Of a stretch of 23,877 nt of DNA, positions 3,244-20,388 are shown piece by piece. The position numbers and the translations under genes are program-made. Position 1 is the stretch's first letter; each line of letters begins with the position of its first letter. Under the pieces are notes generated by a model. That model did no database searches. It was not told the DNA's origin and worked only from the letters and a program-made list of their open reading frames with translations. Source of the DNA: a virus (taxonomy: Duplodnaviria; Heunggongvirae; Uroviricota; Caudoviricetes); IMG/VR virus record IMGVR_UViG_3300047447_000093. The stretch is one strand, 5' to 3'.

Positions 3244-4776
3244 TTATGTTATTTGTAGAAGTGTTGTTGGCAAACCTACAATCAAACTAACAAGTTCTGC
3301 GTCTAACCCTGAGAGGGCAGCACTCTTGTATACAGCATCATGCACTGTAGAAGTGTATTGCTTACTCCTAGAACCTAGTGTATGATTTTGGCTGTTCAGA
3401 GACAAGCCAGAGTAAACGTTAAACTGCTCCTTAGTCCATGCTACAGGGCCAGTGGTTGCATTTTTAACTTTGTACCCTGTGCCAGAGAACATATTGTTCA
3501 TACAGATAACGTTGTTCAAAAGTGATGCTGTAGAGGTAGTTTGGATAGCTGCATCTGTTATACCGATGAATACATTGTTGAAAACCTTGTTGTCACAAGC
3601 GCCTGCTGTATCTCCTAAGAAGAATCCTGTTTTCATTGTGACAAACTGATTGCCGTATATGTAATTGTTTGTGCATTTGCCAAGAATCATGACACCACAA
3701 CCACTATTGAATACACCAGCCTTACCTACAATATTGCTAATTTTGTTTCTACGTACAATTGTGTTCTTTGTTCCAATGTCTAACAGAATTCCGTTAGCAT
3801 CAATTGTACTTGTGTAGAATGTATCACCTACATTGTCTTGAATGATATACCTACCGTAGAAGCTATCTACGAATCCTGTTGGCCCTTGTATATTGGAGGC
3901 ATAGTTATCGGAGATGATGTTGTCACCGAATGTTGTATAGCTATATGACAGAGCAAAACCCCAAACACCGATACAACCGCCAAAGATGTCTGTTGGTGAT
4001 TCAAGTCCATTAAGGAACTTATTCCCTTTGATTTGGCACCCTTGCGCTTGGTATGCTTGGCCTGTTGTACCGGGGCAGGTAAGTTCGATAGCACATCCCC
4101 TATAGTTATTGAAGGTATTATAATTAATCTTAATATCTGCCATATACGCGGCAGAATTACTATCAGTTTGTGTGCGGAACTCAATAACAGAACGATTAGC
4201 AGCATTCGTGAATGTATTCCCCTCAATGGTACACCGAAGCATGCTAGAGTTAGCAGCACTTTGAACCCACCACCTCAAAGCTGCATGATTTGTAGAGCCT
4301 CCTGCTGTCGTGTTGAAAGTGTTTCCACGAATCTCAATGTCAGAGTGTGTATCACCAGAAGCAGAGAAGCGGATAGCAGATGTACCACCTGGAGTATCAA
4401 AGATGTTGCCAATGTAACGAGAACCCCAAGCAGCACCGTTGTGTGTAACAGCGGCAAGGGATTGGAAAAACATAATATTTGTACCAGTTCTTCCATTTGT
4501 TAGAGTGTTAGTAAGTGTAGGTGAAAATACGATACTACCAACAGACGGGGCGTAGTCACCACGAATTGTGCAAGGTGTTGTTACACTTCCTCCGTGTGCT
4601 CCTACAGAGATACCTGCTGCATAGGTGTGTACTCCGCAAACATAGAGGTCATCCCCACCTTTAACGCCAGAGGCTCCCCATACAATCTCACTCCATCCAC
4701 CCCATGCATTGGCGTAAGAAGTTCCGTTCCTTGTGCCTGAATGACTTGTATCAGGTCTTACATACCACGTAGCCAT
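3244..4776 (-). CDS. Right-handed parallel beta-helix (pectin lyase-like) protein, putative polysaccharide depolymerase, 510 aa
   Basis: Start MATWYVRPD..G..NGTS.ANAW with GAGG RBS. Repeated I.GN.F / I.DN / I.GN rungs; Asn/Gly/Thr-rich. Confidence 0.75.
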   Translation of the reverse strand: MATWYVRPDTSHSGTRNGTSYANAWGGWSEIVWGASGVKGGDDLYVCGVHTYAAGISVGAHGGSVTTPCTIRGDYAPSVGSIVFSPTLTNTLTNGRTGTNIMFFQSLAAVTHNGAAWGSRYIGNIFDTPGGTSAIRFSASGDTHSDIEIRGNTFNTTAGGSTNHAALRWWVQSAANSSMLRCTIEGNTFTNAANRSVIEFRTQTDSNSAAYMADIKINYNTFNNYRGCAIELTCPGTTGQAYQAQGCQIKGNKFLNGLESPTDIFGGCIGVWGFALSYSYTTFGDNIISDNYASNIQGPTGFVDSFYGRYIIQDNVGDTFYTSTIDANGILLDIGTKNTIVRRNKISNIVGKAGVFNSGCGVMILGKCTNNYIYGNQFVTMKTGFFLGDTAGACDNKVFNNVFIGITDAAIQTTSTASLLNNVICMNNMFSGTGYKVKNATTGPVAWTKEQFNVYSGLSLNSQNHTLGSRSKQYTSTVHDAVYKSAALSGLDAELVSLIVGLPTTLLQIT

Positions 4777-12564: not shown

Positions 12565-12633
12565 TTTTAAAATCTGCTCAATATTTGTAAAACTACATTT
12601 CCAAAATTTTCCCACATGCCCCAGAAAATCATG

Positions 12634-12655
12634 GCCCTCCTAGTGAGGGCTTTTT
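12634..12655 (+). terminator. Intrinsic terminator
   Basis: GCCCTC-CTAGT-GAGGGC-TTTTT. Confidence 0.85.
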
Positions 12656-12803
12656 GCATTTCTCTTGCCTGTTTGTATGAAAGTATTCTTTAACAAGATT
12701 TGTTGTATTAAAGAAAGCTTACATTTGTGCAACACAAGCTCCCTCTCAAACAGCCTAGAACACTTTCCAACATTTGTCTAGAACTATTTTGACAACAAAA
12801 AGC

Positions 12804-13824: not shown

Positions 13825-14145
13825 ATGATTCGCATTCGATATACTTTCAATTCTGCCAGTGATGGCGTAAGATGGGGTGACTTTCTTACATCATGCGTCA
13901 GTGTAGAGGGGGCTTTAAAATCTTTTGCTGGGAACAGCCCTAAGTTTATGCTTCAAAATCTGGTTGAAATGCATATTTTTGAAATAAATAACAAACAGCA
14001 TCAATCAAGAGAAACTTTGATTCAAGGTGTTGAGAAACAAATCACTGAATTCATTAAAGAAAATAAGGAGAAACAAAATGAACGCCATTGTAAAAGAATC
14101 CCTCTTGCAACAGCCAGCTATACCAGTAGCTTCTTTAATGAGTAA
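13825..14145 (+). CDS. Hypothetical protein (3' end overlaps the next gene by 68 nt)
   Basis: GGAG RBS after the promoter; 106 aa. Confidence 0.75.
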   Translation: MIRIRYTFNSASDGVRWGDFLTSCVSVEGALKSFAGNSPKFMLQNLVEMHIFEINNKQHQSRETLIQGVEKQITEFIKENKEKQNERHCKRIPLATASYTSSFFNE

Positions 14146-14734
14146 CGGCAAGCCCATTGTACAAGCTCGCCTCTCTACATCATTTGCAAAGTTGCGCGAA
14201 AAGGGTGCTTGCGAAGAAGGTTATAAAAAACTTGCTAAATATCTCGGAGGTGTTACAAAATACGGCAAGGATACGGAAATCAATCTGCTGACTATTCTGG
14301 AAAGCAATGGTTTTGATGATTGTGTGTGGTGTCTCCGTGCTACTTTACAAGATTCGGACAATGTAAAACGCCACATTGCAGCAGATTTTGCAGAAAGTGT
14401 TCTTCATATTTACGAAAAAGCCTATCCTACAGACAATCGGCCTAGGAAAGCTGTAGAAGCTGCACACATGTACGCTGATGGTGAAATTTCGCACGAAGTA
14501 TTAGCATCATTACGAAATAATGCTACTTATGCTGCTGATTCTGCTGCTTATGCTGTTGCTGTTGCTGCTACTTATGCTGCTGTTGCTGCTACTTATGCTG
14601 CTGATTCTGCTGCTTTTGCTGTTGCTGTTGCTGCTACTTATGCTGCTGTTGCTGCTGCAAAAACACGCGAAGAAAAGAAACAACAATTGACACAAATCGT
14701 TAAAAAATATTTGATTGCCGATGTCAATGAGTGA
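14078..14734 (+). CDS. Imm5-like domain phage protein with Ala-rich repeat
   Basis: AAGGAG RBS; AADFAE.VL.IYE...P.D.RPR.AVEAA..YA.GE motif, then ATYAADSAAYAVAVA repeats. Confidence 0.7.
   Translation: MNAIVKESLLQQPAIPVASLMSNGKPIVQARLSTSFAKLREKGACEEGYKKLAKYLGGVTKYGKDTEINLLTILESNGFDDCVWCLRATLQDSDNVKRHIAADFAESVLHIYEKAYPTDNRPRKAVEAAHMYADGEISHEVLASLRNNATYAADSAAYAVAVAATYAAVAATYAADSAAFAVAVAATYAAVAAAKTREEKKQQLTQIVKKYLIADVNE
14522..14653 (+). repeat. 66-bp tandem duplication (2 copies, 1 mismatch) encoding 22-aa Ala-rich units
   Basis: 14522-14587 versus 14588-14653 differ only at TAT/TTT. Confidence 0.95.
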
Positions 14735-17754: not shown

Positions 17755-17917
17755 GTATGTCACAATTCTGGTATTCCATGTCGCTTTTGTGGAAAATAAG
17801 TAGTTTTATGCTACAAGATGATTGATTCTTAGTAGATTTTATTAGTGTCTCTCTATTCTGTAGCAGAATGTTGCTGTCTTTCCTCTTGTTTGTAGGATAA
17901 ATTGCTGAAAACTCTAC

Positions 17918-17946
17918 TTGACAGAGTAGGACTGTTCGTGTACAAT
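17918..17946 (+). promoter_or_regulatory. Near-consensus sigma70 promoter
   Basis: TTGACA-17-TACAAT. Confidence 0.9.
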
Positions 17947-17951
17947 GGCGA

Positions 17952-18222
17952 CATCTAAGAAATTGGATGGGGGCGACAGAGTAGGAGAGTGGGTCATTTG
18001 GCTCCAGATTGCATATCTTCCTTCTTACTCAATAGCATCTTCCGAATTCTTCCATATCGAGCCAAGCTCTGTGGGGGGTTTGGGGGGCTATTGAGTAGGG
18101 AGTGAGTATTTTCACCAGATTGCATATTATATTATAAGTATTCTATAAGGATACAGACAATTTAAGAAGTTATACACTGAGCATACGAGGCTGATTACTA
18201 CTAACGTAGAGTCGGCCTTTTT
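17952..18222 (+). ncRNA. Putative structured non-coding RNA, about 270 nt
   Basis: Bounded by a promoter and a terminator; no RBS-linked ORF; 82-nt hairpin at 18021-18102 with 10 G-U pairs. Confidence 0.6.
18188..18222 (+). terminator. Intrinsic terminator
   Basis: AGGCTGATT-a-CTAC-TAAC-GTAG-AGTCGGCCT-TTTT. Confidence 0.85.
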
Positions 18223-18335
18223 GCATTTATAAGGAAGAAAGACAAACTAATCCTGATGGAAGTCCTATGTGGTTTGAAGGAGTACGAGTGTACAACCAGA
18301 AAGAATACGATGAAGCAGGATGCCCGTTTTAGGGC

Positions 18336-18389: not shown

Positions 18390-18635
18390 ATGAAAGCATA
18401 CGAACAAAAGAAAGAAGGCTCCTTTGAGCGTGGCATGGTGTGGATGATTGTAGAAGGTGACAAAGAAGCTGTTAGGGCTATCTGTGGTGTGCTAGACGAA
18501 TTCTACCAGAATGATTCCTGCCCAACGGATGACACGATGTATGGAGGAAAGTATTCCGAAGGCTATATCATCTGGAGGGAAGAGAAGGAATATTTCATGG
18601 CTAAGTATAAAGAAGCTAAGAGGGGTGTAAAATGA
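18390..18635 (+). CDS. Hypothetical protein, 81 aa
   Basis: ATG 18390 after AAGGAG; the track start at 18336 is the -35 box. Confidence 0.85.
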   Translation: MKAYEQKKEGSFERGMVWMIVEGDKEAVRAICGVLDEFYQNDSCPTDDTMYGGKYSEGYIIWREEKEYFMAKYKEAKRGVK

Positions 18636-20001: not shown

Positions 20002-20388
20002 ATGAAAATTTCAGAAATTCTTATTGCTGCACGAGCTAAAATTGCAGATGAAGCTGCTTGGACTCAGGGTGAGTTTACGCGAGATGCTAAAGGCTATGCT
20101 GCTTGGAATTATCGTGAAGCTTGTTCCTTTTGTTCTCTCGGTGCTATTCAAGTGGTGGCCCCTCCAAGTGTCATTGCTTGGGATGTTGACAGCATCGGCC
20201 CTAGTGGCCCTATTCAATATTTGGTCGAGGCTATACCACAAGAATTCATAGATGATATCAGGGTGCGGGATGAGACAGATTTTTTACATGGATACGTTGC
20301 ACAATACAACGACAAGTATACACACAAGGATGTTCTTGCTATGTATGATAGGGCTATTGAGGCGGCTCTGGAGGATGAGGGTAAATGA
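20002..20388 (+). CDS. DUF6197-like phage protein
   Basis: WTQG..RD..G...A..FC.LGAI...YND..TH.DV..MYDRAI pattern. Confidence 0.65.
   Translation: MKISEILIAARAKIADEAAWTQGEFTRDAKGYAAWNYREACSFCSLGAIQVVAPPSVIAWDVDSIGPSGPIQYLVEAIPQEFIDDIRVRDETDFLHGYVAQYNDKYTHKDVLAMYDRAIEAALEDEGK

Follow-up and report, generated by a model that had tools for sequence, protein, structure and literature searches.

A promoter-to-terminator unit with a long G-U-rich hairpin in an uncultured tailed phage is a candidate stand-alone non-coding RNA gene

Introduction

What function accounts for a stretch of phage DNA that carries a strong promoter, an intrinsic terminator and one very long hairpin, and no usable open reading frame? 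The question is raised by a short region of the IMG/VR virus record IMGVR_UViG_3300047447_000093, a sequence of 23,877 nucleotides that was analyzed as a whole (the window; positions are those of the window unless another contig is named). A preliminary description of this DNA had offered two readings: (a) a novel phage small RNA or decoy, and (b) an R-loop-primed replication origin. Function has been established for very few of the non-coding RNAs that phages encode, and lytic phages seem to produce them in large numbers. The unit is an unusually clean candidate, since it has its own promoter and terminator, is non-coding and contains the strongest RNA structure of its genome, and its two natural alleles separate an invariant part from a part under structural constraint only. 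We propose, on the evidence of the sequence, that it is probably a stand-alone early phage non-coding RNA gene with a predicted transcript of about 270 nt (approximately 17953 to 18222, plus strand).

The source phage and the setting of the unit

The window was near-identical to the IMG/VR contig UViG_3300046513_000108 (G001; 90,390 bp), with a match of 100% at the locus, and represents an uncultured tailed phage of about 90 kb. The ends of G001 were classed as direct terminal repeats, and its gene content includes a large terminase, a portal, a major head protein, a DNA polymerase, a primase/helicase, a ribonucleotide reductase and an RNA ligase. The best cultured match of the large terminase (TerL) was found among Pakpunavirus-type Pseudomonas phages such as PA10, with 39% identity.

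From about 4.8 kb on, the plus strand of the window carries a block of small genes with no assigned function, together with near-consensus sigma-70 promoters. Six sites matching the consensus at 11 or more of 12 positions were observed in the window, against 0.7 expected (maximum of 4 in 200 Markov simulations). Because all six are oriented like the genes and serve the small-gene block, the block looks like an early region transcribed by the host polymerase. The hairpin unit sits in the largest non-coding island of that part of the genome, and the early region around it is highly mosaic. Elsewhere in the early region, a 235-aa protein (14027-14734) matched Imm5-like immunity protein domains (PF21805, E 2.6e-07), and a 128-aa protein (20002-20388) was assigned to DUF6197.

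The transcription unit and its coding potential

Promoter P1 (17918-17946, plus strand) is made of TTGACA at 17918-17923, a 17-nt spacer and TACAAT at 17941-17946, an 11/12 match to the sigma-70 consensus. The preliminary description had placed this promoter within a few bases of these coordinates. Transcription is predicted to start at A17951-A17953, and the RNA would begin with a G-rich 5' domain (17947-18007), the same in both alleles, that includes a 5'-terminal clamp hairpin at 17953-17968, where the previously noted 5' hairpin indeed folded. The long hairpin (18013-18109) follows, and then an AU-rich linker (18110-18188), mostly single-stranded in the predicted folds, with a small hairpin at 18138-18154. 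The AT-rich stretch reported within this linker, 18120-18175, was confirmed, with a G+C content of about 22% over 56 nt (counted by hand). The unit closes with an intrinsic terminator at 18189-18222, a stem of 12-14 bp (18189-18217) followed by U5, with a folding energy of -21.3 kcal/mol including flanks, and thus has the layout of some 270 nt and a terminator that had been described. The tail CTTTTTGCATTT is common to the plus-strand terminators at 12633-12661 and 18206-18228. The two signals expected of an Hfq-type trans-acting small RNA, a dedicated promoter and a Rho-independent terminator ending in a U tail, were both present, the tail being only 5 nt long, and an AU-rich stretch precedes the terminator.

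A second promoter, P2 (18336-18364, plus strand), lies 110 nt beyond the unit and has hexamers identical to those of P1, TTGACA and TACAAT, again with a 17-nt spacer. From its position and sequence, P2 is predicted to drive the downstream operon independently of P1; the first gene of this operon (18390-18635, plus strand) encodes 81 aa and has the ribosome-binding site AAGGAG 6 nt before its ATG. Since P2, with identical hexamers, serves the next operon, the stretch from P1 to the terminator is a separate transcription unit. On the minus strand, a promoter-like site was found in the AT-rich linker, reading from 18160 to 18131 (TTGTCT, 18-nt spacer, TATAAT; 10/12). Any RNA made from this site would be antisense to both the 5' domain and the hairpin, and AT-rich DNA gives such matches easily.

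No coding capacity was found in the unit. The 49-codon ORF, whose translation had been named as the alternative to a non-coding transcript, starts inside the -10 box of P1 and is cut to 32 codons in the second natural variant of the unit, allele B. Another frame, of 38 codons with a GTG start, is lost in allele B, and only about 1 nt separates its Shine-Dalgarno sequence from the start codon. No ORF was common to the two alleles, no ORF of the unit matched any family in a PHROG search, and in five independent contigs no gene had been called in the stretch. Because an 8-nt insertion and a 2-nt deletion in allele B break every frame, coding could be excluded, and the earlier statement that the unit has no usable ORF held. 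We also considered a type I toxin on the opposite strand and rejected it, as the minus-strand ORFs were neither hydrophobic nor conserved.

A long hairpin specific to the plus-strand RNA

Figures for the minimum-free-energy structure describe a hairpin at 18013-18109 with 43 pairs, 10 of them G-U, and an energy of -48.0 kcal/mol. Its core, 18021-18102, with the loop at 18063-18065 and outer arms of 16 nt (18021-18036 and 18087-18102), corresponds to the hairpin of about 37 bp first noted, and the number of G-U pairs agrees. Pyrimidines predominate in the 5' arm, and G6-T3-G6 followed by GCTATTGAGTAGGGAG makes up the 3' arm.

The strand specificity claimed for this fold was also recovered. When the RNA from 17953 to 18225 was folded, the plus strand gave -90.5 kcal/mol (z -4.8), with 0 of 200 shuffles as good, and the minus strand gave -56.5 kcal/mol (z -1.3). 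Both strands of G001 were scanned in 110-nt windows at steps of 10 (18,056 folds; mean -20.1, sd 6.05), and the hairpin was the most stable single window, at -48.2 kcal/mol, while its strand asymmetry of 23.9 kcal/mol ranked in the top ten. With DNA parameters, the hairpin shrank to an 11-bp core, and the single-stranded DNA gave nearly symmetric energies of -13.8 (plus) and -10.4 (minus). This weak fold of the single-stranded DNA makes the extended pairing a property of the plus-strand RNA. Folding that allows for G-quadruplexes picked none for the unit.

A very strong strand asymmetry of RNA folding was also noticed in another region of G001 that lies outside the window, at 24.1-24.7 kb (locus L005, ~4100-4700). 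There, folds per 110 nt ranged from -33 to -43 kcal/mol on the minus strand and from -8 to -24 on the plus strand; the region has the strongest negative G-C skew of the genome and lies within or beside a 284-aa minus-strand ORF.

Repeated motifs in the unit

Two direct repeats had been described, and both were exact in allele A. The 13-nt repeat CCAGATTGCATAT occurs at 18004-18016 and 18115-18127 (plus strand), on either side of the hairpin core, and the 12-nt repeat GACAGAGTAGGA at 17920 and 17975. The copies of CCAGATTGCATAT are able to pair with each other (TGCA palindrome, AGAT/ATCT), closing the base of the hairpin, and the consensus fold of the two alleles pairs them. The copies of GACAGAGTAGGA contain the first two of three GAGTAGG motifs, at 17924-17930 (overlapping the -35 box), 17979-17985 and 18093-18099; these are all the GAGTAGG 7-mers of the 23.9-kb window, and they fall inside the unit, on the plus strand, within 170 nt. 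The third copy is the complement of the hairpin 5' arm. The 5' copy, within GAGUAGGAG, can also pair with that arm before the 3' arm has been made, at -16.9 against -27.2 kcal/mol. In allele B, the left copy of each direct repeat has two mismatches, so that neither is conserved as a repeat; both changes in the first copy of CCAGATTGCATAT are wobble-compatible with pairing between the copies.

Near the 5' end, at 17955-17962 (about +3 to +10 of the RNA), lies CTAAGAAA, which we take to be the 8-nt 5' handle of type I-F crRNAs. An RNA anti-CRISPR acting as a solitary repeat mimic was considered and rejected: only this 8-mer was present, unaccompanied by a repeat hairpin in either the window or G001, and we judged it a coincidence. 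A comparison of the window and G001 with type I-F, I-E and I-C repeats (approximate queries), allowing up to about 25% mismatches, gave no match.

Comparison of the two alleles

Only two alleles of the unit were found in all the collections searched, allele A of the window and allele B of a second phage genome (UViG_3300048090_000069; 89,651 bp). Between the two alleles there are 14 substitutions, besides the 8-nt insertion and the 2-nt deletion of allele B. All of these changes lie within 18008-18075, a stretch that takes in the hairpin base and 5' half. From 18076 on, the two genomes were identical for 690 nt. We attribute this block to recent exchange, and the boundary of the exchange is placed by the alignment at the hairpin apex, 18066-18076; the allele pattern is therefore in part a record of recombination. 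A number of short contigs from metagenomes (L015, L016 and three from Logan) begin inside or just after the unit. As contig starts fall at the unit and the exchange boundary sits at the apex, this suggests that assemblies break at this point because of coexisting alleles, as would be expected of a sample containing both, and it points to the hairpin as a possible recombination hotspot.

Left of 18076, the divergence was uneven. It was heavy upstream of P1, with few changes in and just upstream of the P1 spacer, and both P1 hexamers were unchanged while the spacer and the upstream sequence differed. No difference was found across about 63 nt of the 5' domain, and both of its flanks differed at 20-45% of positions; the hairpin 5' arm had diverged by 20-30%. 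We read the constancy of the hexamers and the 5' domain amid such flanks as a signature of selection.

The changes in the arm left the hairpin as stable as before. Of the allele B changes at sites paired in the allele A fold, six preserve the pair by wobble and three disrupt it. The inner stem is shifted in register by the 2-nt deletion, and the 8-nt insertion places AATACT opposite an unchanged AGTATT, which gives a longer stem; the resulting hairpin contains a 3x3 internal loop. Its energy was -51.1 kcal/mol, compared with -48.0 for allele A, and under a null model of equal mutational load (mean -38.5, sd 5.8) only 2.3% of simulations were as stable as allele B. None of the pairs of the two alleles showed a compensatory change on both sides, and the structural test is a weak one because the G/U-rich partner arm tolerates any transition. 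The comparison thus gives evidence, at the level of these two sequences, for a retained structure, short of proof by covariation. The structural conservation in relatives on which the preliminary description had made its reading depend was accordingly seen between the two alleles and did not extend to more distant relatives, which were without the unit.

Distribution of the unit

Searches of cultured phages with the DNA of the locus (blastn) and with both flanking small proteins (tblastn) gave no match. Rfam release 15 returned no family for the whole window at gathering thresholds; in E-value mode, only microRNA-precursor models appeared (E 0.7-5; 15-19 bits against thresholds of 63-230), matches that reflect hairpin shape alone. 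Four anchor patterns run across IMG/VR found only G001 and the genome carrying allele B (G003/L002). In the metagenome pattern scan, one match was obtained, by chance, in unrelated GC-rich DNA. A match in the genome scan, to a Pseudomonadales MAG, was also set aside as chance (estimated expectation about 0.5), sharing with the unit only the 12-mer TTACTCAATAGC. The contig concerned (JANQSV010000054.1; L036:1040-1150) carries two copies of a perfect palindrome of about 34 bp that contains TTACTCAATAGCGTAA; they lie upstream of a 428-aa ORF and are operator-like, and the 12-mer is probably common to the palindrome and the outer stem of the phage hairpin by chance.

The downstream 81-aa protein had three cluster matches among 5.8 billion proteins, and the contigs with its gene each carried allele A or allele B of the unit and nothing else. 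With TerL, two further complete genomes of the clade were found, G002 (93.7 kb; 74% identity) and G004 (86.2 kb; 76%). We built a covariance model from the two alleles (R1; 184 positions, 61 pairs). Neither BLAST nor this model found the unit in these complete genus-level relatives, and the model gave no match in the relative G005; the unit was recovered only in the two near-identical phage genomes, and G004 was also without the 81-aa gene. The covariance search that had been suggested as a check in related phages and Rfam was negative for these relatives and for Rfam. Because the unit is absent from G002 and G004 and confined to two alleles, it is, as far as the genomes compared can tell, an accessory cassette of one phage species in a mosaic early region.

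Alternative explanations

The unit could instead be a cis-acting leader or insulator of the downstream operon, with read-through from P1 and the hairpin serving as an RNase III site or 5' stabiliser. It is co-oriented with the operon at 18390 and directly upstream of it, it was linked to the 81-aa gene wherever it was found, and its hairpin is a long dsRNA, with an internal loop in allele B. Compared with the R sites at which RNase III processes T7 early transcripts, the unit has the dsRNA stem of at least about 20 bp (37-45 predicted pairs) and lacks the position between cistrons of a polycistronic transcript, having a promoter and terminator of its own while P2 serves the operon. A leader role is possible only via read-through, and a good terminator and the near-consensus P2 both stand between the hairpin and the operon; with P2 present, such a role becomes unnecessary. 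Furthermore, G002 has its homologue of the 81-aa gene behind ordinary genes and an ordinary short leader, without the unit. We therefore regard a leader as improbable.

To about the same degree, we doubt that the unit is a non-functional relic, either a decayed moron cassette or an inverted-repeat insertion with target duplications, still transcribable and with no selected RNA function. Its accessory status, with absence from the complete genomes G002 and G004, and its place in a highly mosaic region would suit a relic, as would a 13-nt direct repeat flanking a hairpin with inverted-repeat termini. The marks of a MITE, dispersed copies and target duplications abutting inverted repeats, were nevertheless not found: the unit is single-copy in its genome, with no others in the viral, metagenome and genome collections, and the direct repeats are offset by 0-5 nt from the stem ends and overlap the stem on one side instead of abutting it. 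The extended pairing exists only in RNA, and the P1 hexamers and the 5' domain stayed invariant amid diverged flanks while the stability of the hairpin was kept, which also argues against decay.

Under reading (b), the unit would be an origin primed by an R-loop, like those of ColE1 RNA II, T7 or T4 oriF: the P1 transcript would persist as a hybrid at the AT-rich stretch and there prime DNA synthesis. Several ingredients of such an origin are there: non-template G-clusters (G5 and G6-T3-G6) behind a strong promoter, the 56-nt stretch of low G+C, a location in the largest non-coding island of that genome part, repeated motifs that could be iterons, and the minus-strand promoter-like site, which could supply an antisense regulator. 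However, the terminator ends the transcript right after the AT-rich stretch, and the G-tract is sequestered in the RNA hairpin, which the allele changes preserve. No strand-compositional switch was seen at the unit, as the extremes of cumulative GC skew fell at about 4.8 kb and beyond 22 kb in the window, and at about 81 kb and 22 kb in G001, with the unit mid-slope in both cases (at 67.3 kb in G001). The unit was also missing from two complete relatives whose TerL proteins are 74-76% identical, and both direct repeats were degenerate in allele B. An origin is thus not supported, and we consider it very unlikely.

Least probable of all, and by our estimate hardly credible as a full account, is a protein-binding DNA control region in which the three GAGTAGG motifs, grouped as they are on one strand and with one over the -35 box, would be operators of a phage regulator shutting P1 off and the RNA would be incidental, for the -35 copy is altered in allele B (GACAGAGTAGGA to GACATAGTAGGG), the third copy merely complements the hairpin 5' arm, and the hairpin, the terminator and the invariant 5' domain are left unexplained. 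An operator role of GAGTAGG could be compatible with the RNA reading.

Discussion

The small-RNA reading is the one we prefer, because the unit is transcriptionally separate, its signals are strong, it has no coding capacity, its structure is extreme and RNA-specific, and an invariant sequence lies beside a part with structure-only constraint. Reading (a) of the preliminary description stands in this general form, that of a phage small RNA with promoter, terminator, no conserved ORF, a plus-strand fold and a hairpin kept between alleles. Its narrower proposals, a wobble-rich stem that evades RNase III or a decoy for a dsRNA-sensing defence, go beyond what the sequence shows.

How such an RNA might work can be outlined. 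Host sigma-70 polymerase would transcribe the unit from P1 to the intrinsic terminator, giving an RNA with the 5' clamp hairpin, the invariant G-rich 5' domain, an RNA-only hairpin of 37-45 bp, the AU-rich linker and the terminator hairpin. This RNA may be a stable one that works in trans, either as a regulator or as a sponge. Its hairpin, long enough to be an obvious ligand of such proteins, could be a docking or processing site for an RNase III-type dsRNA-binding protein, and would then either titrate that protein or be cut, freeing two halves. The invariant G-rich 5' domain and the unmasked G-rich 3' arm may carry the sequence-specific function, e.g., pairing with pyrimidine-rich targets, and the pyrimidine-rich 5' arm may be a mask only. 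If the 5' arm is a mask, this would explain that it is the sole part of the RNA to vary while its ability to pair is kept. A co-transcriptional alternative would have the 5' GAGUAGGAG pair with the 5' arm before the 3' arm exists. When targets were sought in the phage itself, exact complements at least 11 nt long occurred at chance level and duplex energies lay within the shuffled range, so that the 5' domain, the same in both alleles but partly structured in the predicted folds, had no phage target above shuffled controls.

A more specific version is that the unit encodes an early counter-defence or host-takeover RNA, either a dsRNA decoy or sponge for RNase III, a dsRNA-binding factor or a defence sensor, or a masked pro-sRNA released by cleavage. 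CBASS cyclases are known to sense structured phage RNA, cabRNA (PMC10686824). We hold this version to be unlikely; if true, the decoy or the masked pro-sRNA would be a new functional class of phage RNA, and a dsRNA sponge or processed regulator would provide a new mechanism of phage host takeover and a compact structured RNA part. Otherwise, the unit is one more orphan phage small RNA of a single uncultured species.

Among known systems, the layout of ColE1 RNA II, T4 oriF and the T7 primary origin resembles the unit in the succession of a promoter, a G-rich transcript and an AT-rich stretch. The unit differs from them in that its transcript is terminated, its G-tract is paired in RNA, no skew signal accompanies it, and it is not conserved in relatives. 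Closer parallels are found among the stand-alone regulatory RNAs of phages. Lambda OOP RNA, P22 sar, P1/P7 C4 and the P4 CI RNA have their own promoter and terminator, and each regulates a defined phage gene, to which it is antisense or from which it is processed. The unit shares with them a short promoter-to-terminator stretch without an ORF, dependence on host polymerase and stem-loops, all of these being predictions in its case. Unlike them, it overlaps no gene, has no complementary phage target among those searched for, is longer (about 270 nt) and is dominated by a single hairpin of 37-45 bp.

In virulent Pseudomonas phages, non-coding RNA candidates have been described by ONT-cappable-seq and grad-seq, including ncRNA1/2 of PAK_P3 and 5'UTR RNAs of phiKZ; both stand-alone and UTR-derived candidates are common, and they are abundant, structured, conserved only within a genus or species and mostly products of early termination or processing in 5' or 3' UTRs (bioRxiv 10.1101/2023.10.13.562163). 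The unit would likewise yield a structured small RNA of narrow distribution, and PAK_P3-type phages are distant relatives of the phage of the window. In contrast to those candidates, it comes with a near-consensus promoter of its own and is set off from the next operon by its terminator and P2; it also has a single very long, wobble-rich hairpin, with no sequence similarity to cultured phages. Another hairpin precursor encoded by a phage is that of 24B_1, a microRNA-size RNA of the temperate lambdoid Shiga-toxin phage Phi24B that is processed to 20 nt (PMC10732415). The weak Rfam matches of the unit were also microRNA-precursor-shaped, but there is no sequence relationship between the two. Collectively, these comparisons place the unit, which falls in no Rfam family, with an already known kind, the stand-alone phage non-coding RNAs, and it is most likely a real, well-delimited non-coding RNA gene candidate and not an origin.
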